Positions 1-40,635 are shown, counted from the first letter of the stretch. The stretch is DNA of 64,000 bases from a virus (IMGVR_UViG_3300021426_000092:2837-66836), one strand, 5' to 3'. The notes: generated by a model from the letters alone, not told the origin. Made by a program: numbers and translations.

Positions 1-756
1 GAGCTTGTACTTCCCGTATGTCGTGTGCCAGTTGTAGCACCACTCCGGGAAGTTGCCCTCGATCTTCATGCATTCCTCGACCGGTTTGATAATCGGGATC
101 GCGCCATACGGCATCGGCGCCGAGCACGTCATCCCGTCATACCCAAGATACTCCCAGTCGTGATCTCTCTTCGTCCAGAACAGACAGATCGCTTTCGCCA
201 CGAAGATGGTTTCCTCCGCCGGTTTCGTCATCGCCTGATTCGCTTCGTACAGAGCCATGACTTCCTGATCCAGATGCGGGTAATACGCCTTCGCCATCGT
301 CTTCAGGATCTCCCACAGTTTCTTTCGATCCCTCTGGAACATGAGCGAAGTCAGCCGTCCTGTTTCATACACATCCATATTCCGGATCGCCTGAAACAGT
401 TTCTGGCTGACGGACGTTTTATCTTCGTCCTCCCGATAATCTCCGAACATCAGATTGCAGACAAAATAATCTGCATCCCTGTTCTTCTTGCAGAGGCAGA
501 GCAGAGACAGCGCCTTCGATAACGCTTCCTCCCCTCCTCGACTGCACAGAACCAGAATCTCCTTAGTGATAATCCCATAGCAGTCCTCGGCGGAAATGAC
601 GAGGAGCCTCTTTCGCAAATACGATTCGTACTGCGGAAGAAGCTCCCATAAGCAGTGTCCTGCTATTTCATAATCGCCCTTTCGGATCGAGTTCTGCATG
701 GCGCTCGTGACCTCAAAAAATGATCGGCCGGTTCGCGTCAACAGTTCGTACGCCAA
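1..756 (-). CDS. Stand-alone RarA/MgsA C-terminal-like helical domain protein (3' end runs off the window; absent from ORF track)
   Basis: Manual translation from TTG at 756: MAYELLTRTGRSFFEVTSAMQNSIRKGDYEIAGHCLWELLPQYESYLRKRLLVISAEDCYG..., open to position 1. SAMQNSIRKGD and RLLVISAED resemble the RarA C-terminal SALHKSIRGSD and RRLxxxASEDIG motifs. Confidence 0.65.
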   Translation of the reverse strand, partial: MAYELLTRTGRSFFEVTSAMQNSIRKGDYEIAGHCLWELLPQYESYLRKRLLVISAEDCYGIITKEILVLCSRGGEEALSKALSLLCLCKKNRDADYFVCNLMFGDYREDEDKTSVSQKLFQAIRNMDVYETGRLTSLMFQRDRKKLWEILKTMAKAYYPHLDQEVMALYEANQAMTKPAEETIFVAKAICLFWTKRDHDWEYLGYDGMTCSAPMPYGAIPIIKPVEECMKIEGNFPEWCYNWHTTYGKYKL

Positions 757-889: not shown

Positions 890-1615
890 TTACCGCTTCA
901 CGTTCACGTGCGGGACGTTCGTCTTCAGGTTGTAGGTGAAGTATTTCCCCCACTTCTGCTTCATCAGGTTGATGCTGTTGATCTGGTCTCCACGCATCTT
1001 CCCGGAAGCGCCGCCTTCATTCGTATCTGTCAGGCCCTTGGAGCAGAAATACTTCGGCTTCAGGATTACCCGGTTGAAAAGCAGCTCCTGCAAAACCAGG
1101 TCGATGTCGTAGTTGTACTCCAGCTCCTTGTGGCATTTGGATTTGAACGTCAGCCGATTCACCCAGCGAACAGCTCCGGCGCAGCCCTTGAAGCCGAACT
1201 CCGCGTCATAGTTCCACGGACGAATCGTGGCGTCTGTAGCTCCAAAGCCAATACCGAGATCCAGCATCAGCTGTCCGATCCGTTCCAGCTCAGAAGTGAT
1301 AATCTCCGGGTCCTCGATGCTGTCCGTATCGTACATGCGGTAGAAGAAGTGATGGATGTCGTCGTCCAGTATCGCTATACAGTCTTCGGGGGCGTTGTCG
1401 ATCAGCCACTGGTTTACTTCGGTAAGACCACAGATCTGGCTGTCTTCGACCGCCTGCACCTTGATGTGATCGGCGTAGTCCTTCAGCGCCTCGACGTATT
1501 CTTCATATTCGCTCTCTCGAACGATATATGTTCCGTATTCAAGGAACTGATGCGCCGTGCAGGTCTTCGCTCTCTTGTAGCTGGGGATGTAGATATTGAA
1601 CGTGTATTCAGCCAT
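890..1615 (-). CDS. TAGT/GREB1-like glycosyltransferase (GT-A fold; TET-associated glycosyltransferase family)
   Basis: N-terminal IYIPSYKRA, ILDDDI (DxD-type motif), YNYDIDLVLQEL, TNEGG and C-terminal LMKQKWGKY match the family pattern. Confidence 0.8.
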   Translation of the reverse strand: MAEYTFNIYIPSYKRAKTCTAHQFLEYGTYIVRESEYEEYVEALKDYADHIKVQAVEDSQICGLTEVNQWLIDNAPEDCIAILDDDIHHFFYRMYDTDSIEDPEIITSELERIGQLMLDLGIGFGATDATIRPWNYDAEFGFKGCAGAVRWVNRLTFKSKCHKELEYNYDIDLVLQELLFNRVILKPKYFCSKGLTDTNEGGASGKMRGDQINSINLMKQKWGKYFTYNLKTNVPHVNVKR

Positions 1616-1910
1616 TCGGCGACACCCCGTTCTTTTTCCGATCCTCCTCGATTTCCAGGACTGTCATCAGAGCGTAATTGGCGAGGTCGATCAGCGTGTC
1701 GATCATACTCTCGTCTTTCACGTTCTGCTTTCCGGTTCTGGTGAGCGCTTTGAACCTGTTCAGCTTATCTGTCAGCCGAATCCGCGGCATCGCCATTCCT
1801 TCCTCTTCATATGAGAGGTGGAAGCTGTCGCCGTAGTCGGCGTTCTTCTTTTTATAGATCTCATTCAGGAGATCACACAGTTCTTTGTGCCGAATATACT
1901 TCGTACTCAT
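1608..1910 (-). CDS. DUF1599 / nucleotide-modification-associated domain 1 (Nmad1) protein
   Basis: KKKNADYGDSF...RIRLTDKLNRF...DESMIDTLIDLANYALM motif series. Confidence 0.85.
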   Translation of the reverse strand: MSTKYIRHKELCDLLNEIYKKKNADYGDSFHLSYEEEGMAMPRIRLTDKLNRFKALTRTGKQNVKDESMIDTLIDLANYALMTVLEIEEDRKKNGVSPNG

Positions 1911-2611
1911 CTATGATTCCACTCCTTCGGGAGATTGAACCCGCAGTTCATAACATAGTCGATCACCGACATGTTCGGAACGAAGTCCCCGTTCACCTGT
2001 TCGTATTTAATCGGCTGGTAGTTCGCATACACCAGATACAGGCCGTTTCTGCGATAGTCTGCCTCGATATGATAATCCTTGGCTCCCTCACCGCTCAGGT
2101 ACGTGTTCGCGCCAAGGAGCTTACACATCTCAATGCATCTCGCATCTCGTCTTTCTTTCAGATCAAGCTCCGATGACAGGAAGAACTCACGGCTGGCTGT
2201 CAGTCCAAACTTATCCGCAATACGCATGATGCAGCAGCGGTTGAAGTCTGCAAGATTACCGGCATTCAGTGAGTAGGACAGAAGCTCCTCGAAAAATGGG
2301 AACGCCTTGCTGAATTGGTCTGCCTTCTTGTATTCCTGCCACAGGGTCTTTATCATCTTGTCGATAGTTTTCTCATCTACCGCCAGATGGATCTCATTCA
2401 GATTCCTGACATGGTAATGGATCGGGATCGTAAAACGGTGCGGGCCATTTGCTGTCTTGATATCATTGTAGTTGTGTCGGCCGGTCTTGCTGTATAAGAC
2501 GTTATCCGAGAACACGAACAGATCGCTCCGGAACATCTTATAGAAATAACCCATCCATGGGAAGAAGTCCGGCTGATGCGAAGCCAGAACAATTGAATTG
2601 GCGTGATTCAA
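1907..2611 (-). CDS. WbqC-family protein (putative aminoacyl/glycyl transferase for amino sugars)
   Basis: HQPDFFPWMGYFYKM...DLFVFSDNVLY, YLSGEGAKDY and NMSVIDYVMNCG motifs. Start placed at a TTG overlapping the upstream stop (TTGA). Confidence 0.85.
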   Translation of the reverse strand: MNHANSIVLASHQPDFFPWMGYFYKMFRSDLFVFSDNVLYSKTGRHNYNDIKTANGPHRFTIPIHYHVRNLNEIHLAVDEKTIDKMIKTLWQEYKKADQFSKAFPFFEELLSYSLNAGNLADFNRCCIMRIADKFGLTASREFFLSSELDLKERRDARCIEMCKLLGANTYLSGEGAKDYHIEADYRRNGLYLVYANYQPIKYEQVNGDFVPNMSVIDYVMNCGFNLPKEWNHR

Positions 2612-3306
2612 AGATCGCCCATCTCCCCTCTGCGGAACACACATTGAAAAGCTTCAGCATTGTTCAGCCCGGACTGCGCTCCTCTCAGGATGGGAAGAAC
2701 GGTCAGCGCTTCGTAAGACCGTGGGTGCGGTCGTTCCCGAATCACGTTTTCGTAGACTTCAAGTGCGCGGACTTTTGCGTAAACAGCTTCCGGTGAGATC
2801 GGTACGAAGGTGTTCGGTTCAAACCGGCTTTCGCTCGGGTTCAAGGCCCAATCAGTTGACGACTGGACCTCCATAAGATACAGACCGGTGATCGGCTTGA
2901 TGTCCTCTCTTCCACGCTGCCAGAGGCGAAATGCCTCCATGCAGGATGCCGCGGTCCAGTAGTGGTCTGTATTCACATCTCCCGGGTGCTGAGTGAAAAT
3001 AACGTCTGGCTGGAAGTCTCGAATACAGTTCTCAATGTCCTGCACCATCTTTCGATGATTCGCGCTATTGAATGTGCTGTCGTCATAGTCGAACTTGTAG
3101 CACTTGCTCACGCCAAGGATCTCATGGCTTAATTCCAGATCGTCCTTTATTGCCCCAAGATCATTCTGGTAACGAGTAGTATCGCAAGTATTAAGAACAG
3201 CCACGCCGATGGTGTTCCCTCGTTTCGCAGCCTCATAGATGAATCCTCCAGCTCCTAATACCTCATCATCCGGATGTGCCACAACGAACAAGTATCTCTT
3301 ACTCAT
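2608..3306 (-). CDS. PIG-L/LmbE-family N-deacetylase
   Basis: AHPDDEVLGAGG and HPGDVNTDH metal-binding motifs, C-terminal AEAF. RBS GGAGG precedes ATG at 3306. Confidence 0.9.
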   Translation of the reverse strand: MSKRYLFVVAHPDDEVLGAGGFIYEAAKRGNTIGVAVLNTCDTTRYQNDLGAIKDDLELSHEILGVSKCYKFDYDDSTFNSANHRKMVQDIENCIRDFQPDVIFTQHPGDVNTDHYWTAASCMEAFRLWQRGREDIKPITGLYLMEVQSSTDWALNPSESRFEPNTFVPISPEAVYAKVRALEVYENVIRERPHPRSYEALTVLPILRGAQSGLNNAEAFQCVFRRGEMGDL

Positions 3307-4291
3307 GGCGGCCTCCATCGAAAACGCTCTCGATCAGATGGAGCACATCGTTTTCCGCCAAGCGCTCCGCTCTGTCTGACCTATACTCCGGGATGTTCTT
3401 GCCGAGTCCAATGATATTGCTTCCATGCGGGACAATGATGTATTCTCCGCTGTCAGCAACATATGCCTCTTCGGCCTCTTCCTCAGAGAGAAGTGCTTCG
3501 TGCATTTTCTCCCCGGGGCGCCGGCCTATGATCTCTTTCGGGTAATCGGCCGAGAGATTCAGGTATCTGCACACTGCATGCGCCAGATCTCCGGTTGTAC
3601 AGGCCATCGCCTTTTTCACCAGCAGATCACCATTCTTTCCGATCGCAAACGCCTTGCTCACCAGATCCGCAGCTTCTTCAACAGTCATCATGAATCTGGT
3701 CATGTTCGGGTCGGTAATGGTAATCGGGAGTCCAGTCTGCGCTTGCTCCACGAAGACTGGGACCGCACTTCCGCGAGAAGCAACAAGGTTTCCGAAGCGG
3801 GTTATGCAGATCTGCGTCTTGTGCTGTTCCATCGACTTCTGGATCGCAAGCTTCTCCATATACGCCTTGGTCATCCCCATAGCGGAAGTCGGGTATACCG
3901 CTTTGTCTGTGGACAGGCATACAACCTTCTTGGTCTTGTGCTGAATCGCAGATACCAGAACATTGTCGCTGCCAATGATGTTCGTCTTGACAGCCTCCAT
4001 CGGGAAGTATTCACAAGACGGAACCTGTTTCATTGCGGCGGCATGAAAAACAAAATCGACGCCGCGCATGGCAGCATCGACCGTCTTCTTGTCACGCACA
4101 TCTCCGAGGAAGAACCTGACATGCTCATTCCCCCGGTACTGCTGGGACATATCATATTGCTTCTTCTCATCACGGCTCAGGATGTTCACTGTATCCGCGC
4201 CGAGCTTCAGGCACTTTTCGAGGAACGCACGTCCAAACGTGCCCGTTCCTCCGGTAATAAGGACGTTGGAACCGGCGATGTTGTCAGTCAC
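3299..4291 (-). CDS. UDP-GlcNAc 4,6-dehydratase, FnlA/CapE/PseB-like extended SDR
   Basis: ITGGTGTFG, SRDEKKQ, GDVRD, HAAAMKQVPSCE, LSTDKAVYP and GRRPGEKMHEAL motifs. Confidence 0.9.
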   Translation of the reverse strand: MTDNIAGSNVLITGGTGTFGRAFLEKCLKLGADTVNILSRDEKKQYDMSQQYRGNEHVRFFLGDVRDKKTVDAAMRGVDFVFHAAAMKQVPSCEYFPMEAVKTNIIGSDNVLVSAIQHKTKKVVCLSTDKAVYPTSAMGMTKAYMEKLAIQKSMEQHKTQICITRFGNLVASRGSAVPVFVEQAQTGLPITITDPNMTRFMMTVEEAADLVSKAFAIGKNGDLLVKKAMACTTGDLAHAVCRYLNLSADYPKEIIGRRPGEKMHEALLSEEEAEEAYVADSGEYIIVPHGSNIIGLGKNIPEYRSDRAERLAENDVLHLIESVFDGGRHE

Positions 4292-5495
4292 AGTCCTTCA
4301 CCGCCTGTTCGAGTGTATTGATAATCCGCTCCTGATCTTTCTCAGTCAGCAACGTGTGATATGGGAGCGTTATGAGCTGGGCGTACTGTGCATATGCATT
4401 CGGATAGTCAGTAATCGTGTATCCGAGTTTCTTATATCCAGTCATCATTGGAAGCGGCTTGTAATGGACGTTGCACGGAATGCCGTAGTCTTTCATCCGC
4501 ACAATCACACGGTTTCGGAATTCCTCCTGATCTCCGTTTATCGCCTTGACGCCAACCGGATACAGGTGGAAGGATGTCGTGTAATCGTCGCCCAGATGCG
4601 TTATAAGCGGGTGGATTCTTTCGGAGCGTTCCAGCATGGAATCATACTTCATCGTCAATTCCACGCGCTTCTCGTAAATATCCGGGTATCTCTCAAGCTG
4701 AATCAAACCTATAGCGGCATTGATGTCCGTCATTGGCCGGTTAAATCCCATGCCACGAATATCATATTCCCATCCGTTTATAGGATCTTTCCCGGTCTGG
4801 CAGTGATGCCTGATCGCCTTCAGAGCAGCGCCCACTGCTTCGTCCCAGTCATTGAAGTTCTTCCATACAAGTGCACCGCCTTCGCCTCCGGTCGTGATGC
4901 ATTTCAGAACATGGAAGCTGAAGCAGGTGATATCTGCGAAAGATCCTGACGGCTCAAAGCCCTTCATTGCTCCGAAACTGTGAGCTGCGTCTGCGATCAC
5001 CGCAACACGCCCGAGCACATCCTGCAACGGGCTGCTTGATTTGAAAATATCCTTCTTGTTGTTGACAGCTTCAAAGATCCGTTCGTAGTTGCAGATCTTT
5101 CCACCATAGTCCACAGCAATGATCGCCTTCGTTCTCGGCGTGATCGCTTTCTCCATGGCATCGTAGTCCATTTCGAAGGATTCACCGTCTGTATCAACGA
5201 AAACGATCTTCGCCCCAACGGTATATATGACATCCGCGGTCGCGGTATAGGTAAGCGGCGTGGTAATCACTTCATCGCCGGGGCCAATTCCGAGAACGCG
5301 AAGGGCGAACTCAAGGGCTGTCGTGCAGCTGTCAACAGCAACTGCGTGTTTGCATCCGCTCATTTCAGCGACTCTCTGCTCAAACGCAGCAACGTGTGGC
5401 CCTGTCGTGAGCCATCCGCTGTCAAGCACTTTCTTGACTGCTTTGAGCTCCTGCCGGCTGAGGTCCGGGTGGGCGAATTTGATAATCTTACCCAT
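4284..5495 (-). CDS. DegT/DnrJ/EryC1/StrS PLP-dependent sugar aminotransferase
   Basis: SGWLTTGP, SCTTALE, DAAHSFGA, SFHVLKCITTGGEGG (PLP Lys) and LPYHTLL motifs. Confidence 0.92.
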   Translation of the reverse strand: MGKIIKFAHPDLSRQELKAVKKVLDSGWLTTGPHVAAFEQRVAEMSGCKHAVAVDSCTTALEFALRVLGIGPGDEVITTPLTYTATADVIYTVGAKIVFVDTDGESFEMDYDAMEKAITPRTKAIIAVDYGGKICNYERIFEAVNNKKDIFKSSSPLQDVLGRVAVIADAAHSFGAMKGFEPSGSFADITCFSFHVLKCITTGGEGGALVWKNFNDWDEAVGAALKAIRHHCQTGKDPINGWEYDIRGMGFNRPMTDINAAIGLIQLERYPDIYEKRVELTMKYDSMLERSERIHPLITHLGDDYTTSFHLYPVGVKAINGDQEEFRNRVIVRMKDYGIPCNVHYKPLPMMTGYKKLGYTITDYPNAYAQYAQLITLPYHTLLTEKDQERIINTLEQAVKDCD

Positions 5496-6108
5496 TTGCC
5501 TCGGCCTCCTTCGCGGCAATCTCATCTGCGCCGATCAGTTGACCTTTCATCTGATCGTACCAGATTGCCCTCGCCTTGATACGGCGTTTGGAGATAGGGA
5601 TTGTGCATCCCTCAATGCCGAGCTTGCGGATCAGGTCATTGTAGTCGAGCTCATTCCGGCAAGCGATCAGCACATAATCGTACTGCTCGTAGTGGATCGG
5701 CTCCATGTCCTTTATCATCCGCTCTTCCAACGGCTTTTCTTTCTCAACTACGTCATCGATCTTGAAGTTCATCAGATCGGCCGTCCAGTCTGCCAAATCT
5801 TCCATGACCCATTCGCCGGCGTGGGTGTTCAGCTTGATGTTGACGTATTTCTGCTCAGGCAGCGTGTATCCGATCAGCATCTTGCAGTCGAGCATGGCAT
5901 CCGGATCTACGCGCTGGAAATACTTGACTCGCTGGTTGCCGCCAAGGACCTGATTCTGCTCATTGATAACGATGATGTCGAAGTCGCCATACGTTTCAAG
6001 CGACTTCTCAAGGTCTTCGCGTCTCTGCTTCTTGACTTTTCTGGGGTTGCCAAAGTCAAGGCGGAGATCACGCGCTCGGCGCTTGACAATCTCTTGCCGT
6101 TTATCCAT
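5488..6108 (-). CDS. ParB N-terminal-like domain protein (phage modification-associated type)
   Basis: NPRK...SLETYG...IVINEQNQVLGGNQR...NIKLN...GEW resembles ParB/Srx domains. First gene of a tightly overlapping operon. Confidence 0.75.
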   Translation of the reverse strand: MDKRQEIVKRRARDLRLDFGNPRKVKKQRREDLEKSLETYGDFDIIVINEQNQVLGGNQRVKYFQRVDPDAMLDCKMLIGYTLPEQKYVNIKLNTHAGEWVMEDLADWTADLMNFKIDDVVEKEKPLEERMIKDMEPIHYEQYDYVLIACRNELDYNDLIRKLGIEGCTIPISKRRIKARAIWYDQMKGQLIGADEIAAKEAEANG

Positions 6109-6121
6109 TTTTCATACCTCC

Positions 6122-6159
6122 AAAAAGAAGAAGGACCGCTTCCCCAAGCGATCCTTCTT
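6122..6159 (-). terminator. Intrinsic terminator-like hairpin directly upstream of the ParB-like gene RBS
   Basis: Minus strand AAGAAGGATCGCTT-GGGG-AAGCGGTCCTTCTT followed by CTTTTT. Confidence 0.6.
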
Positions 6160-6489
6160 ATGTGTTTTGCTGTATCCTTTTATCGACGGTGCCATATTAC
6201 TACGTATAGACCTTGATCTTCAACGACACATACCGATAAAGAATGTTGTTACATGATTCTTAATGATAAACGACGACTATCAATGTCATCAACTGACAAA
6301 GGCTTCGGTTTACTCCGTATCCCATGCGCTCTCGTCAATCCCGTTTCTCAGGATGCTCCAGGCCGGTACGCAGCAGGTGCAGGAATTACCGCGGAGCCAG
6401 TACCGGTTTCGGAGTACGAGACGCAGTGGAATACGAACTTTAATCCTTTTGCCGCAGTAGCAGCACTTTGTTCTCCACCACATATCCTT

Positions 6490-8390: not shown

Positions 8391-9827
8391 TTATGCTTCC
8401 TCCTTCAGCCAGTCGAGCCAGCACAGTTTACACCTGCGTAATGATGGCGAATCGATGCTTTCTAATGCGCACTGACTAAAGATTTTCCCGGGAGGGCAGC
8501 CTTGTTCTATAGTCACAGCAAAGGCGGCCATCTCCTCAGCACTCATTTCACGAAGCTGATCGTAGTGTGTGATGGGCATCGCTTCTACAAGTACAAACCT
8601 TTGTTTTGGGTCATAGTTTTTCGCTCCTTTGGTATCAACAACCATCATTACTCATCCCCATTTCCACTTGCGTCGAGAAGAGCCGAGATGTACGCTCTTG
8701 TCATTTCGGATGCCTCATTCGTGCTTGCTCCAAGGTCAAGGCAATGTTTGAAAAAAACGTATGTCATTTCAGCGAGACCCTTTACTGCTTCAACAGCATC
8801 ATTTTCCTTTTTCATAACTCTCCCCCCTGTTTTAACCAGTCGATCCAGCACATTCTGCAAGACATCACCACATTTTCGTTTCTGCAAAATCCCGTCTCTC
8901 CGAAATAGTGCGGCGGCGGGCAAGAATATTCTGTCCCTGTTTGCGTCATAAACTCAGCCATCTCCTCCACGCTCTTTTCACGAATCTGGTCAAAATGAGT
9001 CTTCACTTCTACTGTGTTGTAATAACAGAACTTCCCGCATTCCTTATCTCGGAATTCTGAGCAAGCCCCTATCGGCATCCTGCATCTTCCGGTCTTTACT
9101 CTCATTCTTCCTCCTTCATCAACCAATCGAGCCACGCGGCCGCACAAGTATCATCATTTTCGGAACAGCCGTTCATTGGGTTCGGGCAGTTGAAGCAATC
9201 AATATGCTCTGCGATCCAGATGGAGAACTCCTCTGCGCTCATCTCTCGGAGTTTGTCAAAGCGGGTGTTGCTTCTTGGTTTTCCTCTTATTTCCGAGCAA
9301 ACGATTACGTGGTTTCCGCCTTCGTTTGCCTTTCTTTCTATCTCGCAATTTTTGTGCATCAAGCAAAGTTTACAAAGGTTCATCGCTCGCTTTCCTCATA
9401 AAGCGCCTGTATCCGGATCGTAGGTTGGTTCAGACATCTCGCAGTATTGAGTGGCTTCAACTTGTGCTTCATACTCGCGCTCTTCGTCGTATGGTTCCGC
9501 TTCTTCTTCCAGCCATTCTTGAATGCTGTCTCCTTTCTGATCGTAACAGCATCTATACATCGGGCACGAGTCCGGACAATTGCCGTTCGCGCCGAATATC
9601 ACGCAGTTATCCAGAACCTGCGCCAGAAACAGCGCGATATCGTAATCGCTCGCCATACGAAAATACTTGTCCGCATTGGAAATGCGCCTCGGCGTGTGGT
9701 ATGTACACCCGGAAGTAGCCCGAATCTCGACGCCGGTCTTTTTGCAGACGCCCTTTGCGTATTCGCAGGAAGGGCATGTTGGAAGGCTCATTCTGTCTCC
9801 TCCAGTGCAAGCATCTTCTTGAAGCAT
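8391..9827 (-). other. Four tandem small Cys-rich paralogues (8391-8648, 8812-9105, 9102-9383, 9396-9827), interrupted by one unrelated ORF
   Basis: Shared T(H/R)(F/Y)DxxRxxSxEE(M/F)...C...WxxWL motif in the translations. Confidence 0.6.
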
Positions 9828-11197
9828 TCTATATGGAAATGGATGAAGAACTGATACACGACATTCTGATTCACACCATGTTTCCTCGCTATCATATCTA
9901 TCGCTTTAGCGTCAGCCAAAGCGAGTTCCCTTATATAGTGCTCAACTAATATCTTTTGTTTTTTGTTCATCAATTTCATCTCTTTTCTTTGGTTTCAGCT
10001 CACAGCAGTCATCCTTCCTCTTGCATGTGTCACAAGGCGGGATGGAATCCGGCAAAGCCTGCTCATAGTACGCCTTTGTTAAGCAAATCATTCAGTCGCA
10101 TCCTCATCGCCCAGGGCAGTTCTGAATATTTCTTCAGCTGTAACCTTTCTTCCATTCACATATACTCCGCCTTCTCCCTCTGTCACAGTCGCCCCGACCT
10201 CTTCACACAAGCGCAGGAATAAGTCCAGGTCAAATTCACGATCGGTCATTTAACCGCCCTCTCTTTTGATAAACGTATTGAGATCGCGAACGATGTCAAA
10301 GAGCATATCCCTGACTTCCACGATCTCACCATTCTCGTACATAAGTGCTGCTGTCTGGAGTGCTCCCACAATCAGAGCATCTTTCAGCTCGCCGTTCTGC
10401 TTGATGTATTTCATATCTTTCTACCTTTCTGGCACAATTGTTCTGACAGACTCTAAGACTCTTGCAACCTCATTGCTTGTTGCCCTCACGCTGCCGGTCA
10501 GTTTCGCTTCCTCAAGGATTGCGTCATCAAAAGCCCATTTCAGTTCTCTATCTGAAATGAGTCTTCCGCCAAACGGTGGAACTTCTTCAAGCTCATATCT
10601 GCTCCACTTGTCTCCATTCCGTACGAAAAGAACTACGCCATCGTCCGATGAATAGATCTCGGCTTTGTACACCATACAGCCTGCGCCTATCTTCGGTATG
10701 TCCAAGCCTTCAATATAGGCGTTCATGGTCAGTCATCCTCCAGTGCTTCCAGGATTCTATATAGAAATGCCATCCCAAGAATGATCCAATACAGCGGAGG
10801 CATTGAAAGTTTGACTCCGATCCAAATCAGGCAAACAATCAAGTCGTCTTCTCCTCCTTTTTGATAATGTGATGCCCGGACTGTGTTCCGGTCCAATGGT
10901 AATTACCTGCCGTGTCATAGCCGGTTGCATAGACTTCTTCGCTTGCCGGGATGATGGCGGGAGCATTCTCTAACAGTGTTCTGATATTTTCATAGATTTC
11001 ATAGCTTACAACAGGAATTTTCTTGATAAGCTCGTCTAAATCACCCAACCGACCATGCGGCGGGACGGGGACGGCTATGCCAACCTCAAATGCTTTTTGC
11101 TCTGCGACGGGACATCTTCTTGCTTCGCCGTTATTGTAAATACGGATAACTTCTCCTGGCTTCGGCATTTCCATATTAGGCAGATAAACTCCCATGC

Positions 11198-29251: not shown

Positions 29252-30475
29252 ATGATTTATCAGGAGCGAGACAAGCGTATTGCTGTTCTGCGTCATGCAG
29301 ATAAATCCACAGAAGAACTAAAGCGTCTCCCTTATATGTCCAAGACCTACAACGAAGCATGGCTTCAGGAGTTGATAGACGATTATCCAAGCGTTCTCCC
29401 GATGCATCAGTTCGGAGACGACTATTCGAACCTGATTTCTTTGGGCCGTGAGATCGAAGTCTATGACGGACAGCATTACGGATATATTGATAATCTCCTT
29501 ATCTCCCCTTCCGGTCATGTTGTTATCGTAGAGACTAAACTTTTTCGGAATCAGGAGTCCCGTCGCACCGTTGTCGCGCAGATCCTCGACTATGCCAAAG
29601 AGGTCCGAAAATGGGACGCAGAAAAGCTTGACGAGGCAATTGCGGACTACACCCATGCCAAGTACGGCCAATCCTATCGGATGATCGACCTGATGTGCGC
29701 AGCAGGTTATCTGACCTTCAGCGACGAGGCAACATTCACGGACAACGTAAACCGCAATCTGTCCAACGCATCGTTCCTTCTTGCTATCGTAGGCGATGGC
29801 ATAAGCAGCGGTGTAGCGAGCATCGCAGATTTCCTGAACCAGAATGCTCCGTCGCGGGTAAATCTGGCTCTGATCCAATTGGATCTCTACGAGCTGAACG
29901 GCGATGTGATAGTCATACCAAATACGCTGACGAGAACATCAGTCATTGAGCGCTTTGTCACTACAGTGTCCAATGCTCCCGTCAGAATACCGTCGGATCT
30001 GTCTGTGAAAGCAGATGTAGACAAGCCGATTCTGAGCCGTACTGAATTTATCCGCCGGTTTGCAGAACTTGGAGGCTATTCGGCAGATGCCATAACTGAA
30101 TTCATAGGTGACGCCGAAATGATCGACGGGATCTTCGTGAACATTGCGCCTACCGAGCTTCATCTGCGTTGTGCGATTGATAATTCAACAGTCGCCTTAA
30201 TCATCTTCGCCATTCCAGAGTACAAGCATGCCGATCTGTACATACGTCCAGATCGTTTCAGAAAGAAGCTCGAAGTCAGCGGCAGGCTGCCGGCAGACAT
30301 GAATGATTTCCTTGATTTCTTCAAGCCCTACTGCGATCTTCAGCGATGCAAAGCAGCTCCATACGAATTCGGTGAGAACCGTTTCTACTACGCTAACGTC
30401 TCCAAAGTCATAGAGGACAAGCAAAAATTCATTAAGGCGTTCGAAGATCTTGTTGCCAAAATCAGAGAGACATGA
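29252..30475 (+). CDS. PD-(D/E)XK nuclease-domain protein (NucS/restriction-endonuclease-like), co-oriented with the repressor
   Basis: EAWLQELI...GREI...IDNLL...VIVETKL..NQESRRTVVAQILDYA motif series. Confidence 0.75.
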   Translation: MIYQERDKRIAVLRHADKSTEELKRLPYMSKTYNEAWLQELIDDYPSVLPMHQFGDDYSNLISLGREIEVYDGQHYGYIDNLLISPSGHVVIVETKLFRNQESRRTVVAQILDYAKEVRKWDAEKLDEAIADYTHAKYGQSYRMIDLMCAAGYLTFSDEATFTDNVNRNLSNASFLLAIVGDGISSGVASIADFLNQNAPSRVNLALIQLDLYELNGDVIVIPNTLTRTSVIERFVTTVSNAPVRIPSDLSVKADVDKPILSRTEFIRRFAELGGYSADAITEFIGDAEMIDGIFVNIAPTELHLRCAIDNSTVALIIFAIPEYKHADLYIRPDRFRKKLEVSGRLPADMNDFLDFFKPYCDLQRCKAAPYEFGENRFYYANVSKVIEDKQKFIKAFEDLVAKIRET

Positions 30476-31306: not shown

Positions 31307-32023
31307 TCAGCATCTGTTCATAATCTCCCGAAGGCTATCCTTGATGTAGTAGTCAAGGCCGAGCTTCTGGCAAAGCGCCTCTGCGTCGTGCCCAAACTTC
31401 TTCCAATCGATATCGGACGGGTGGTAATTCAGCTTCCCGATCTTGATTTTGTCGAAAGACTGGTAATACTGGCCGATCATGCTCAGGACGCTATCCGGGT
31501 CAATTACAGGTTCAAAGGACACCCATGTTTTGATTTCCTTTTTCTTTGCGAGAAGCAGCCCCATCAGGCGGGCTGCTGGATCAATCGCACCCGGTTCAGC
31601 AACTGCTGCAAGGTTGTTGTCTGCCGTAGAGATCGTAATGCCGTACCAGTCGTTTTCATCGAGCAGATCGAAGTCCCGGCTCCCGTCGCCTTTGGTAAGG
31701 ATCTGAACATGGTTTCCAGCATCTTTCAGGAGCTTGATGATCTCTCTGGTGGCAGACGTATCATAGCCGGTCGGGAATGGATCGCACGTGAAGCAAAGAT
31801 GAATCAGCTTGCCGGTGATATGCTCCTTTTCAAGCTGCTTTCTAACCTCCTCCACAATTCCCGGCCGCGGTGCGACGTTGGAATGAAACGCCTCGCGTTC
31901 CTTGTGAAGTACACCGGGGGCAAAGCAATAATAGCAGCGATGGCAGCATCCCGTATAGATGTTCAGGGCGAGATCTCCGTATTCCTTGGCTTTTCCTTTT
32001 GGTTCATAAATTGGCGGTTTCAT
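31307..32023 (-). CDS. Radical SAM protein (phage SPL-like type)
   Basis: NIYTGCCHRCYYCFA (CxxxCxxC), TCDPFP, ILTK, WVSFEPV. Confidence 0.85.
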   Translation of the reverse strand: MKPPIYEPKGKAKEYGDLALNIYTGCCHRCYYCFAPGVLHKEREAFHSNVAPRPGIVEEVRKQLEKEHITGKLIHLCFTCDPFPTGYDTSATREIIKLLKDAGNHVQILTKGDGSRDFDLLDENDWYGITISTADNNLAAVAEPGAIDPAARLMGLLLAKKKEIKTWVSFEPVIDPDSVLSMIGQYYQSFDKIKIGKLNYHPSDIDWKKFGHDAEALCQKLGLDYYIKDSLREIMNRC

Positions 32024-32036
32024 GGCATTGTCTCCT

Positions 32037-33089
32037 TTATCTGTTGACCAACACTTCCATATTGACGTGTTCTACAAGCTCCTCGACGCGTTTCATATTG
32101 GGATGGGCCGGAAGCGCCGTGTTTTCTTTGGCGTACTGGAGCCTCTTTTCAAGATCATTGACCATATCGAAGAACTCCTGCTGGTACGTTCCGTCTTCAT
32201 TCATGTACTTCCCGTTGCGGATCTCCATGAGCATATCATGATCCGCCTCTCGGTAAGTAACGATTTCCTCTTTCTCCAGAATATCGAGACACATCAGGTA
32301 CAGCCGGATAAGATGCATGGCATGCTTCGCCAGATGGGCGTCATCCTTCTTCTTGTTGCGGCCGTTCAGCTTGTCATAGTTCCCGATGATGTTGGTCATC
32401 TCATTTATCAGGCCGCGGAGATCTCGCACGGGGAACCGTTTCAGATCGATGTCAGCAAACACTTCCCGCTCCAGCTCCTCTCGATCACTCTTGTCAGTGT
32501 AGAGCCTGATCGCATCAACTGGCAGGATCTTCGACTTGCTGCCGAAATCCTCGATCGCCTTTTCGACTGCTTTCCGCATATATTCTTCCTGCTTCGGCTG
32601 CGGGAGTCTGTCGTGCGTGATCGCGTTTTCGAGGCGGCGAAGCTGCTGGTTGGCATAGCCCCCGAAGGCATTGATGGCTTTCCTCGATAGGAACAGTCTC
32701 CGGTTGTCGATCAGTTCCTGCCCGAGCTTCGTGATATGGAAGTAATGCTCCGGCTTGCAGCCGAGCATTTCGATCACATTCGGATTGCAGTTCAAGAGAA
32801 GGCCGACGAGCTTATTGAACGCATATACGGTCGTGTCTGTTTCGTTGTTGATAACCTGCTCGAAGTTCGTCAGTCCTACGAGATCGGACATGCTGTTTGC
32901 CGCGCAGCCCCTCACATCAACGTCGGAGCCCGCGACGTTCGTCCCATAGGCATAACTCCCTCCGAGTGTCAGAAACATGATCTTTCCGGCCAGATGTTCG
33001 TTCTTCCTGAGAAAGTCATACTGCGGTCCGGCCACCATCTCTCTGATCTCTTCAATTGTCATTACTTTTTCATAGCTCTTATCGCTCAT
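32037..33089 (-). CDS. Pol-beta superfamily nucleotidyltransferase (RlaP/YcgL-like)
   Basis: GGSYAYGTN...SDVDVRG...NCNPNVIEML...KHAMHLIRL motifs. Confidence 0.85.
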   Translation of the reverse strand: MSDKSYEKVMTIEEIREMVAGPQYDFLRKNEHLAGKIMFLTLGGSYAYGTNVAGSDVDVRGCAANSMSDLVGLTNFEQVINNETDTTVYAFNKLVGLLLNCNPNVIEMLGCKPEHYFHITKLGQELIDNRRLFLSRKAINAFGGYANQQLRRLENAITHDRLPQPKQEEYMRKAVEKAIEDFGSKSKILPVDAIRLYTDKSDREELEREVFADIDLKRFPVRDLRGLINEMTNIIGNYDKLNGRNKKKDDAHLAKHAMHLIRLYLMCLDILEKEEIVTYREADHDMLMEIRNGKYMNEDGTYQQEFFDMVNDLEKRLQYAKENTALPAHPNMKRVEELVEHVNMEVLVNR

Positions 33090-33271
33090 TCATTTCCTCC
33101 CGCTTTCTATACTCTAAAAAGTCTATGGCGCACTGCTGACCGGCAACAAAGTCCGGGCATTTTTTGCACACACTGATAGGTTCATCATTCATCGGGTCGA
33201 TCCATCCCATACAATAGATCTGAGGACGGCCGAATAAGTAGAACTCCGTTGTCGGTCTGCCGCGTCCCTTC

Positions 33272-33865
33272 TCATAACTGCACTTTGTATGTACCATTAT
33301 CGTCCTCCTCGCCACCACTCAACTGGATCGTGCAGATCCCCTTTTCGATCATCTGGCCGATGTAGTCCATGATGATTTCTTTTTGCTTGTGCGGAGCATA
33401 GAATTGATAAGTCATTCCCTTCTCGTCAAGCCTCCAGCCGATCGGTTCACCCTTTTCAAGGAAAATATCTATGAGCTTTTCGGTCGTGCTGTTGCGGATC
33501 TTATCTGACATCGTAAACTCGCGCTGTGTCCAGGGAACAAACTTGTCCACCTGCTCAACAAGCAATTCGGCATTCCCATCGAACCGGATCGCTCTGTCGT
33601 CTATATAGCATCTGGCTGGAGGCTTTTCAGGGAGAATGTCTTCGACGCCCTGAATATCGTACTTATCGAGCCATTCCCGGATTGCTTTAGCTCCTCCGGG
33701 GAAAATGCATCTTGAGGACACGATGACAACGAAGTATCTTGTGCTCAATTCCAGGATCGTTTCGCGGATACCGGGGACGGGCGGATCAGGAATTACTGTT
33801 GCCCCTTTCCAACCGCTGCTGTAGGAATGAATGACCCCATCGAAATCAAAAACGACGTTCTCCAT
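33272..33865 (-). CDS. HAD-family phosphatase with C-terminal extension
   Basis: VFDFDGVIH (DxD), VSSR, KPPARCYIDDRA. Confidence 0.8.
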   Translation of the reverse strand: MENVVFDFDGVIHSYSSGWKGATVIPDPPVPGIRETILELSTRYFVVIVSSRCIFPGGAKAIREWLDKYDIQGVEDILPEKPPARCYIDDRAIRFDGNAELLVEQVDKFVPWTQREFTMSDKIRNSTTEKLIDIFLEKGEPIGWRLDEKGMTYQFYAPHKQKEIIMDYIGQMIEKGICTIQLSGGEEDDNGTYKVQL

Positions 33866-34076
33866 GTTTATGGCTCCTTCACTCAACCTTCATGTTGCAA
33901 GCTGTATTCGTAATCGGCACATCCTTTATGCTTCCGGACACCACTCTCCACGGGGTTCCGCCGTATGTTTCTACATTTATTTCCGGTGGGAGATCGAAGA
34001 AAACTTTCTGATATTCAGTATGCCAACCGATGTTCCCCATGACATTGCGTTCAAGAATGACTTCCAGTCGTTTCAT

Positions 34077-38598: not shown

Positions 38599-40635
38599 TT
38601 AAAATTTGATCTTCATAACTCTTTCGGTGGCGCCCTTGACCTTGACGATCAGGTCGTTGCGCTTCGTGGAGCTGAATCCGATGCCGGAAAGCTGGTCCTC
38701 CACGAATTCGACCTTCATCTTGCCGCCAAGCGCCTCCAGCACCCGCTTGTGATCCATGAGCTCCTGTTTCAGGAATTCGTTGTAGAAACCGTTCGGCTCT
38801 TCGGGGTTTGCGCAGCCTTTCAGGATGAAAAAGTAGTGCTTGTGGCCGATGCCGGTCTGCTCATCCCAGTAGTTCGGGGAATTCATCACGACACTCACGG
38901 GAACAAACTCCATTGTCTTGACGCCCCAAATCTCGCGGCTGGTGCTCTCGGATGGCAGCTTGGTCTGGATGCTGAACGTTCCGTCCGCGGCGAGCATCAC
39001 ATCCGCGACGAGCACGTTTTCTCCCTGCCGCAGTTCCTTCCGGTAATCGAACAGATAGATCTGACCATCGAATTCGATCTCGGCCCGGAAACCATCGCGC
39101 CCGCCCCGGTTGGTAAACTGATGGACGAAGAACCGGTAAACACCAGGCTTCATCCTGCGCTTCTCGGGCCAGGTGATATTTTCAACCGCCGGCTTGTCTC
39201 TGAGCGGATCGATGATGTCCACATCCAGATTGCCGAGGTCAGGCAAAACCTTGTTTCCGAAGTAGATCTCACGGCCGTTCGGTTCGATGCAATGTGCGTC
39301 GAGGTCGTTCCGGCTCCAGACGCCGCCCAGATCGTTCCACTGGATACTGAACCGAAGCACTCCATCCACGCGGCCTCCCGCGTTCTTGACGTTTTCTTTC
39401 ACGTCGCTGTCGGTGATGTTCCCGGCGTATGCCCACGAGAACGGGTTGTTCCACTTGAACATTGTGGGCGCATCCGCATTGACCGGAGCAATCACGGACA
39501 TGAAGTTCGGCGCGTGGCGATTCTCGACGTACGCTTCGATGTCTCTCGCTGTCGGGAGCACATCGCTGATGAACTTCTCAACCGGGATCTCCTCAACCCG
39601 GTCGAACTTCTTGGGAGTGCTCTTGGCGTCCGCCATCATCTCGTCGAAGACGGAGCCGCCGATGCGCTTCGCTGCGTCCTTGTTGGAAAACAGGATGTTG
39701 TTCACCCGGATATCGTCGAGGGTCGCGTACCGGCGAGGCAGCGACTCCATGTACCCGAGCTCTTCGATCTTCTTCTTGGCGTCTTCCAGCATCTTCTTGG
39801 TGAAAATCGCCTTTGGCCTCTTATAATTCGCCGGGGCGACGATCAGCTCATATGAGCGGACCGCGGCATCCAGATCCTTCCCTTCCGAAATGTCCACCAG
39901 AAGCGTACCGATGGAATGATTGCGGATACGGCCGATCACCGGTCCTACACGGCCGGCGTTCAGCCAGACGTACAGGTTCTTCTTCTCTTCGGGCAGATTG
40001 TCGAAATCCTTCTTTCGCTCCTTGAAGCCGAGAAGGTTCGTCCTCCACTCAGCGCCTTTGTACAGGGTGTTGGAGCCGATCAGCTCCAGCACCGTATCCA
40101 CGGCGTCCATGGTGATCTCTTCCATTGAACGGCGGAACACGTTCGCCGTATCGCGGTACTGGCCTTTCTTCTCTGCCATCGACTGGCCGTAATGGACCAC
40201 GAACTGCTCAGGCACATCCACGACGAAGTGATCCCATTTGATGTCCAGCAGGTTGTCCATGTTGGACAGAGTGCCGACTCGCCGCGTCTGGCTCAGGTAG
40301 ATGCCGCGGATCGGGAGACTCCGAACATAGGCGTCCAGCGCGATAGCCACCGGGCCGTACTTGGGATCGCTCTTCTCGAACTCCCACATGGTATGTACGG
40401 TCAGATCATCGTCGATGAATACTGCGCCGCCGATGTCCTTGATAAAGTGGCGGCAGGTGGAGCAATCATGCTCCGTGCGCTCCCGGAAGATCGGGTTCGC
40501 TCCGTCGGGGAAACTGGCGAGGTACTTGGCGTACAGCTCGTCCTTGTCATAGTCAACCTCGAAGATGCGATCGTGGGTCTGCATCATCTGGTTGAAGTGC
40601 TGGGTCATCTTGTCTCGGAACAGGTCAAATTTCAT
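38599..40635 (-). CDS. 678-aa phage protein with N-terminal Cys/His motif and C-terminal YfaP/TerD-like beta domain
   Basis: RTEHDCSTCRHFI near the N-terminus; DLDAHCIEP...LDVDII.P...AVENITW...GVYRFFVHQF in the C-terminal part. Confidence 0.6.
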   Translation of the reverse strand: MKFDLFRDKMTQHFNQMMQTHDRIFEVDYDKDELYAKYLASFPDGANPIFRERTEHDCSTCRHFIKDIGGAVFIDDDLTVHTMWEFEKSDPKYGPVAIALDAYVRSLPIRGIYLSQTRRVGTLSNMDNLLDIKWDHFVVDVPEQFVVHYGQSMAEKKGQYRDTANVFRRSMEEITMDAVDTVLELIGSNTLYKGAEWRTNLLGFKERKKDFDNLPEEKKNLYVWLNAGRVGPVIGRIRNHSIGTLLVDISEGKDLDAAVRSYELIVAPANYKRPKAIFTKKMLEDAKKKIEELGYMESLPRRYATLDDIRVNNILFSNKDAAKRIGGSVFDEMMADAKSTPKKFDRVEEIPVEKFISDVLPTARDIEAYVENRHAPNFMSVIAPVNADAPTMFKWNNPFSWAYAGNITDSDVKENVKNAGGRVDGVLRFSIQWNDLGGVWSRNDLDAHCIEPNGREIYFGNKVLPDLGNLDVDIIDPLRDKPAVENITWPEKRRMKPGVYRFFVHQFTNRGGRDGFRAEIEFDGQIYLFDYRKELRQGENVLVADVMLAADGTFSIQTKLPSESTSREIWGVKTMEFVPVSVVMNSPNYWDEQTGIGHKHYFFILKGCANPEEPNGFYNEFLKQELMDHKRVLEALGGKMKVEFVEDQLSGIGFSSTKRNDLIVKVKGATERVMKIKF

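Follow-up and report, generated by a model that had tools for sequence, protein, structure and literature searches.

What does a bacteriophage do with a set of genes for making an amino sugar, and onto what would it place that sugar? The question is raised by a 64,000-nt stretch of viral DNA (the window; bases 2837-66836 of the 66,836-bp linear IMG/VR virus record IMGVR_UViG_3300021426_000092). Seven overlapping genes at positions 890-6108 of this window were originally predicted to form a self-contained operon for amino-sugar synthesis and glycosyl transfer, by which the phage would modify its DNA or its virion. We found that all seven open reading frames (ORFs) are present on the minus strand, at the positions given below for each of them, and that they belong to a cassette widespread in phages, a variant of the known phage DNA-glycosylation clusters. 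At the level of the genes this finding is solid; as the target of the sugar, DNA is only slightly favoured.

The conserved frame of the cassette

Viral contigs, together with prophages of Oscillospiraceae, Lachnospiraceae, Treponema and Bacteroidales, yielded 30 viral and 28 genomic loci with a homologue of the cassette glycosyltransferase; in 55 of these loci the homologue was full-length. Three genes were constantly found together in them: those of a ParB-like protein, of the glycosyltransferase itself and of a protein similar to the C-terminal part of MgsA/RarA (MgsA_C-like). The exceptions were loci that end at a contig edge and locus L044, in which the MgsA_C-like gene was not detected. 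These three genes precede the terminase genes terS and terL in every locus that extends far enough. The gene order of the cassette is kept in many independent contigs and therefore did not arise by chance. The original prediction placed the seven genes correctly, but its limits of 890-6108 were too narrow, as the conserved MgsA_C-like gene at 1-756 (minus strand; record bases 2645-3592; 315 aa) belongs to the unit as its eighth member. This ORF extends 191 nt past the left edge of the window, and its last 63 codons lie outside.

The other genes vary. The PIG-L and WbqC genes occur in most loci and are both missing from the Bacteroidales versions. Genes for the DegT aminotransferase and the dehydratase are restricted to the closest group and to the Treponema and L010 variants. 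A PglD-like acetyltransferase is encoded in variants L013 and L016. Variant L027 encodes a fusion of DegT with a hexapeptide acetyltransferase next to a GFO/IDH/MocA oxidoreductase (2407-5206, plus strand), which suggests that a 3-amino-sugar chemistry of the WbpB/WbpE/WbpD type feeds the same glycosyltransferase there. Nmad1 was present in the window and in loci L003, L004, L005 and L008, and was absent from the equally close L006, L007, L009 and L032-L037; it is an accessory, sporadic insert. The frame of the cassette is made up of the ParB-like, glycosyltransferase and MgsA_C-like genes, and the sugar-tailoring genes are interchangeable. The comparison of related loci thus shows DegT, the dehydratase and Nmad1 to be accessory and not core genes, a distinction missing from the original prediction.

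The glycosyltransferase (241 aa, 890-1615, minus strand) is of the TAGT class and has a GT-A fold in its AlphaFold2 (AF2) model (predicted local distance difference test score, pLDDT, 87). It matched phrog_842, 'beta-glucosyl-HMC-alpha-glucosyltransferase' (HMC, hydroxymethylcytosine; E = 3e-10), and a precomputed match to the TAGT profile PF20691 was found in 35 of its 120 listed homologues, at 50-84% identity. Residues 84-86 form an acidic DDD motif, in which D85 and D86 are invariant and D84 is nearly invariant. Viral TAGT-annotated proteins, including a T-even-type beta-glucosyl-HMC-alpha-glucosyltransferase, were similar to the model with template modelling (TM) scores of 0.70-0.81. The PDB matches of the model were generic GT-A enzymes, and a single-sequence search of the PDB with the protein gave no match. 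Both TAGT and Nmad1 are said to have been defined by Iyer et al. in 2013.

The ParB-like protein (206 aa, 5488-6108, minus strand) matched phrog_620 (E = 8e-15, residues 1-139) and phrog_498 (E = 4e-14). It had no match in Pfam or in a single-sequence search of the PDB. Its Atlas neighbours are named 'putative ParB', and PF02195 is found in 18% of the members. The motifs GNPR and GGNQR are invariant, and the invariant residues N21, R23, S36 and R60 parallel, in their spacing, N14, R16, S29 and R56 of ParB176 (PMC13229309). To judge from its sequence, the protein would have a ParB/Srx nucleotide-binding domain at its N-terminus and a conserved domain at its C-terminus; a DNA-binding domain was not recognisable. 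Short ParB homologues of this kind, without a DNA-binding domain, have been proven to activate an enzyme that modifies double-stranded DNA (dsDNA) after replication; in the case of ParB176, the enzyme activated on dsDNA is a thymine dioxygenase of a phage (PMC13229309).

The assignment of the third frame protein came from its family. The protein matched phrog_16866, and a profile of its family matched solved C-terminal domains of MgsA/RarA, with 2qw6 at the top (E = 5.5e-4) and 2r9g, 8g28 and 3ctd after it, and the Atlas neighbours were MgsA_C clusters (score 0.93). None of 23 family members had a Pfam match, including to PF12002, and a single-sequence search of the PDB gave only weak matches (E > 0.06). 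Weak Pfam matches with E = 0.01 had suggested that the protein might be a Rit1-like enzyme or an unrecognised dioxygenase. Both ideas were dropped, and the MgsA_C profile and the Atlas neighbours were preferred.

The Nmad1 protein (DUF1599; 100 aa, 1608-1910, minus strand) matched PF07659 with E = 2e-12 (47.5 bits, cut-off 25) and phrog_1485 with E = 2e-27. Its single-sequence PDB search returned only noise from designed proteins, and nothing relevant was found in the literature on DUF1599. As regards the domains named in the original prediction, those of DegT, the dehydratase, PIG-L, WbqC and DUF1599 stood, but the ParB-like call (no Pfam match) and the TAGT call (below the cut-off) were weaker than had been implied.

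If every ORF is taken to begin at the first start codon in its frame, the seven overlap by 4-38 nt. All cassette proteins are soluble, with zero membrane segments. On the 3′ side and on the same strand, the cassette is followed by the MgsA_C-like gene, the genes of a 78-aa and a 192-aa protein and the gene of the large terminase subunit (phrog_979, E = 8e-158). The 192-aa protein is probably the small terminase subunit. On the 5′ side, a consensus scan gave a promoter-like site, TTGATG-18-TATCAT, at 6263-6292 (minus strand), which is a pattern match only, with 9 of 12 positions matched. It is followed by a terminator-like hairpin of 14 pairs with a T-run (6128-6159, minus strand), which ends 20 nt before the ParB-like start codon. 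These two elements may mark the head of the late operon, in a layout like that of the antitermination-controlled late promoter of lambda (PR′-tR′).

Predicted building and tailoring of the sugar

The dehydratase (330 aa, 3299-4291, minus strand) was assigned to the UDP-N-acetylglucosamine (UDP-GlcNAc) 4,6-dehydratases of the FnlA/CapE/PseB (5-inverting) class. It matched PF02719 (Polysacc_synt_2) with E = 4e-95, and its best PDB match was FnlA (4j2o, 6e-95), with CapE (3vvb) at 9e-92. Its MGMTK is aligned to MGISK of FnlA and CapE. FnlA/CapE-class dehydratases have MxxxK in place of the YxxxK of short-chain dehydrogenases/reductases, and MGMTK may be a motif of this kind. The NCBIfam scores were below the cut-offs for both FnlA (345 bits, cut-off 730) and PseB (281 bits, cut-off 408). 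The DegT-family sugar aminotransferase, an enzyme dependent on pyridoxal phosphate (PLP) (413 aa, 4284-5525, minus strand), matched PF01041 with E = 2e-88. Its best NCBIfam model was PseC (279 bits, below the cut-off of 423) and its best PDB sequence match was 6ewj (6e-98), with the PLP lysine of SFHxxK aligned. Judged by sequence, the two enzymes together should convert UDP-GlcNAc to a UDP-4-amino-4,6-dideoxy-N-acetylhexosamine (HexNAc), whose stereochemistry is not readable in this way. That such a pair yields a 4-amino-4,6-dideoxy nucleoside diphosphate sugar had been claimed before, and the family and PDB matches bear it out.

The PIG-L/LmbE-family de-N-acetylase (236 aa, 2608-3318, minus strand) matched PF02585 with E = 3e-22 (80.1 bits, cut-off 28.2). 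It has the motif AHPDDE at residues 14-19, which contains the AHPDD of metal-dependent de-N-acetylases. Its best NCBIfam model was the bacillithiol deacetylase BshB1 (E = 3e-14), with 53 bits, below the cut-off of 182.

The WbqC-family protein (245 aa, 1907-2644, minus strand) matched PF08889 with E = 1e-56 (192 bits, cut-off 21.3) and has homologues in 8034 representative clusters. We found no functional study of this family in the literature, and a single-sequence search of the PDB gave no match. The AF2 model (pLDDT 94.6) had one solved fold match with a Foldseek E of at most 1e-3, namely BshC (4wbd, E = 9.9e-4), the cysteine-adding enzyme of bacillithiol synthesis. The two structures, which share a catalytic fold of the Rossmann type, aligned over 224 of the 245 residues (VIA-align Z 14.5, root-mean-square deviation 3.2) at a sequence identity of only 11-14%. 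Class I lysyl-tRNA synthetase (Z 12.4), other class I aminoacyl-tRNA synthetases (Z 7-9) and MshC (Z 7.1) were the next fold matches. The WbqC slot of variant L010, between PIG-L and the glycosyltransferase, is filled by an ATP-grasp ligase with an ATPgrasp_Ter/PylC-like N domain (8908-9990, plus strand), a non-orthologous displacement. Because of the BshC fold and this displacement, an amide-forming ligase can be proposed, and the WbqC protein is probably an adenylate-forming ligase of amino acids to amino sugars, as predicted from its modelled structure. Elsewhere WbqC domains are fused to GNAT acetyltransferase (five of the ten fusions examined), cytidylyltransferase or methyltransferase domains. 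The AF2 model was of low confidence over the first 18 residues, and alignments with homologues begin at residue 19; the true start probably lies near that residue, about 54 nt downstream, in which case the PIG-L and WbqC genes would no longer overlap by the apparent 37 nt.

These enzymes resemble those of the PseB/PseC, FnlA/CapE and O-antigen pathways, in that the dehydratase is nearest to FnlA, the aminotransferase is nearest to the PseC model and WbqC is of the same Pfam family. The cassette differs from those pathways in that no equivalog cut-off was reached, enzymes for nonulosonate or N-acetyl-L-fucosamine (L-FucNAc) and for membrane assembly are lacking, and the context is that of a late operon.

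Known PIG-L enzymes (MshB, BshB, PIG-L itself and enzymes of antibiotic pathways) mostly deacetylate glycosides after transfer. For this reason, tailoring of the sugar after transfer is at least as likely as tailoring of the nucleotide sugar. The prediction of an N-acylated, de-N-acetylated sugar can be kept in so far as the AHPDD motif, the fold of BshC and class I aminoacyl-tRNA synthetases and the ATP-grasp swap all fit N-aminoacylation; what has to be changed is the order of events, as the tailoring may follow the transfer.

The acceptor of the sugar

We propose that the FnlA/CapE-type dehydratase would convert UDP-GlcNAc of the host to UDP-4-keto-6-deoxy-HexNAc, and that the DegT enzyme would turn this keto sugar into UDP-4-amino-4,6-dideoxy-HexNAc. 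The glycosyltransferase would move the sugar onto a macromolecular acceptor, PIG-L would strip off the 2-N-acetyl group, and WbqC would use ATP to join an amino acid or a similar carboxylate to a free sugar amine; these last three steps may also take place in another order. The acceptor would most likely be the replicated DNA of the phage itself, shortly ahead of packaging, and the glycosyltransferase would be assisted on duplex DNA by the ParB-like and MgsA_C-like proteins. The likely gain would be a shield against host nucleases. We regard the enzymatic part taken by itself as very probable. The complete proposal, in which we infer the identity of the sugar, the ligase activity, the timing and DNA as the acceptor, seems to us somewhat better than evenly balanced.

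That DNA is slightly favoured as the acceptor follows from several observations. Members of the TAGT class use DNA-bound substrates, the two constant partners belong to families that handle DNA, the Nmad1 domain is associated with nucleotide modification, and the position ahead of the terminase genes suggests that expression is coupled to packaging. The DNA-base target named in the original prediction agrees with all of these, but they are associations only, and no base-priming enzyme was found in the genome or in complete relatives. As for the time of modification, the remaining genes of the window include those of SSB, RecT, RusA, a DnaC-like loader, a replication initiator, helix-turn-helix proteins of the repressor type and numerous small unknown proteins, and no DNA polymerase, methyltransferase, 2-oxoglutarate (2OG) oxygenase or TGT was found among them. 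It is a temperate phage of gut anaerobes (gut Clostridia) with host-dependent replication. Having no DNA polymerase and replication genes that depend on the host, it could modify its DNA only after replication.

Two known systems come close to the cassette. The 5mYOX clusters combine a 5mYOX (TET/JBP) enzyme, with or without a C5-methyltransferase, with ParB and GT-A/GT-B glycosyltransferases (bioRxiv 10.1101/2023.12.21.572611; PMC13229309). Like those of them that join 5mYOX, ParB and a glycosyltransferase, the cassette has a GT-A enzyme of the TAGT class and a short ParB without a DNA-binding domain near the terminase, and it belongs to a phage which leans on host replication and in which modification must act on polymer DNA. 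Unlike in those clusters, no 5mYOX, ThyS or methyltransferase was found in complete genomes of phages with the cassette, the MgsA_C-like protein is an invariant third partner, and the sugar would be tailored by a deacetylase and a ligase. The text of the preprint of Pyle et al. mentions neither deacetylase, PIG-L, ligase, aminotransferase nor dehydratase (bioRxiv 10.1101/2023.12.21.572611). It does report that phage GT-A enzymes glycosylate 5-hydroxymethylcytosine (5hmC) in DNA. The second system is the T2/T6-type beta-glucosyl-HMC alpha-glucosyltransferase, which shares its fold class with the cassette enzyme (TM 0.73 to the homologue of Klebsiella phage PKO111). The T-even enzyme works on substrates that are part of DNA; TAGT of the T6 type extends glucosyl-5hmC by a second glucose, and this glucosyl-5hmC derives from 5hmC incorporated pre-replicatively (PMC13390438). 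In contrast, the phage of the cassette has no hydroxymethylase or primary glycosyltransferase, and its donor is probably an amino sugar.

A number of results weigh against DNA as the acceptor. The match of the glycosyltransferase to PF20691 scored 24.6 bits, under the cut-off of 27.5, and covered the N-terminal half only. Both the glycosyltransferase and the ParB-like protein are acidic (isoelectric points 5.1 and 5.5). Enzymes that could prime a base were not found: Tet_JBP (PF12851) had no match in the record, in the viral records of 30 relatives (of which six are at least 97% complete and one has terminal repeats) or in six host metagenome-assembled genomes (MAGs), and the thymidylate-synthase family (PF00303), to which ThyS-type hydroxymethylases belong, had none in the record and the 12 largest relatives. 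C5-methyltransferase, N6/N4-methyltransferase and 2OG-FeII_Oxy_2 matches were lacking in five genomes, in all five of which the same profile search recovered TAGT, the positive control, as a sub-threshold match of 19.8-24.4 bits. A Pfam overview of the 104 other window proteins showed nothing of that kind either. Since the searches for priming enzymes were negative, the classical route, by which 5hmC or 5-hydroxymethyluracil (5hmU) is made and then glycosylated, is not encoded. The absence of TET/JBP and hydroxymethylase genes, noted earlier for the window, holds for the whole record and the complete relatives, and the genome-wide search for these and for methylase genes that had been suggested, now carried out, found none in the record or in the complete relatives examined. 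To our knowledge, glycosylation of an unmodified DNA base has not been described. The record has a CheckV completeness of only 74%. Many phage 5mYOX are missed by PF12851 (O'Toole et al. 2026, PMC13229309), and a very divergent one may be present; the cassette itself has no unexplained conserved gene of a size suiting such an enzyme. Pyle et al. considered glycosyltransferase contigs without 5mYOX or ThyS to be less obviously related to DNA (bioRxiv 10.1101/2023.12.21.572611). A more daring form of the DNA proposal, which we hold only tentatively and think rather doubtful, is that the frame attaches an aminoacylated diamino-trideoxyhexose directly to duplex DNA without prior hydroxymethylation, the ParB-like and MgsA_C-like proteins serving as DNA-opening or loading factors.

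The sugar may instead be placed on a protein of the phage that is made together with the late genes, be it the capsid, the portal, the terminase or some protein that is packaged, and the lack of a base-priming enzyme in complete relatives would fit this. GT-A enzymes serve many kinds of acceptors, the cassette stands at the head of the late operon just before terS/terL, and virion glycosylation by phage-encoded glycosyltransferases is known from mycobacteriophages. We nevertheless think a protein acceptor unlikely, as the closest structural relatives of the glycosyltransferase are TAGT proteins of DNA-modifying phages and not protein glycosyltransferases, the invariant ParB-like and MgsA_C-like partners come from DNA-handling families, and Nmad1 is a nucleotide-modification-associated domain. 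The product could also be a soluble conjugate of an amino acid and an amino sugar that aids late infection. Every enzyme is soluble, and the cassette resembles the bacillithiol (BshA-BshB-BshC) and mycothiol (MshA-MshB-MshC) pathways in its three-step logic of a GlcNAc-type transfer, de-N-acetylation by a PIG-L/LmbE enzyme (BshB-like) and ligation of an amino acid by a relative of class I aminoacyl-tRNA synthetases (BshC-fold). A small-molecule GT-A enzyme, glucosyl-3-phosphoglycerate synthase, is among the PDB fold matches of the glycosyltransferase. Such a product is quite improbable, since BshA and MshA are of the GT-B fold and the cassette enzyme is a GT-A protein of the TAGT class, the constant ParB-like and MgsA_C-like genes and the fixed position before the terminase would have no role, and the Bacteroidales variants retain the frame genes without PIG-L and WbqC. 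Unlike those pathways, too, the cassette has the 4-amino-6-deoxy chemistry, scores far below equivalog cut-offs and probably serves a macromolecule.

Lysogenic conversion is the least probable reading and would surprise us. On this view the enzymes would block superinfection by altering a glycan on the surface of the host, such as that of the capsule, the teichoic acid or the S-layer. In its favour, the element is found as a prophage, the dehydratase and the aminotransferase have their nearest matches among enzymes of capsule and O-antigen synthesis (FnlA, CapE, 'capsular polysaccharide biosynthesis protein'), and the name of WbqC comes from an O-antigen cluster. But the cassette follows a terminator within the late operon, away from repressor and integrase, its frame genes are related to DNA, and flippase, polymerase, lipid-carrier transferase and membrane proteins are all absent.

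If DNA is the target, the cassette would provide the first DNA glycosylation independent of both hydroxymethylases and TET/JBP dioxygenases, and the first amino sugar on DNA that bears an amino acid. With a DNA-bound aminoacylated sugar, DNA modification would gain a new chemical class, reached by a new post-replicative route of glycosylation. This would matter for the ways in which abundant gut phages evade restriction and CRISPR, for artefacts in the sequencing of gut viromes and for new enzymes to label DNA. The large and uncharacterised WbqC family gains a testable activity, that of a BshC-like amino-acid:amino-sugar ligase, and the phage MgsA_C-like proteins gain a testable role. Our literature search on hypermodification with deacetylase and aminotransferase returned nothing relevant, and we found no paper describing the cassette.

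The phage and its other genes

Gene calling by codon usage placed almost all genes of the window on the minus strand, and many of the short ones were called there as genuine early genes. An alternative genetic code was considered and rejected, as recoding of TGA, TAG or TAA brought no clear gain in ORF length. Relatives of the phage whose glycosyltransferases are 82-87% identical occur as prophages, in Lawsonibacter, Oscillospiraceae and Acutalibacteraceae MAGs; remoter prophage relatives come from Lachnospiraceae, Ruminococcus, Treponema and Bacteroides/Parabacteroides. Nucleotide and protein BLAST with the cassette region and the glycosyltransferase gave no match in cultured phages. The nearest large terminase subunit (TerL) among cultured or deposited phages has an identity of 55%.

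Some other genes of the window deserve mention. Three neighbouring genes at 31307-33886 (minus strand) have no relation to the cassette. Their products are a PA0069/Rv2578c-type radical-SAM protein of 238 aa, an RlaP nucleotidyltransferase of 350 aa ('RNA repair pathway DNA polymerase beta family'; phrog_388) and one protein weakly similar to phosphoheptose isomerase (phrog_1238). Together they possibly form an RNA- or nucleotide-directed module. The relative L013 encodes an RtcB ligase. The sole sizeable gene on the plus strand (29252-30475, 407 aa) had no PHROG or Pfam match. The biggest protein of the window (678 aa, 38599-40635, minus strand) matched phrog_1735, a family without known function, over its full length with E = 2e-264.

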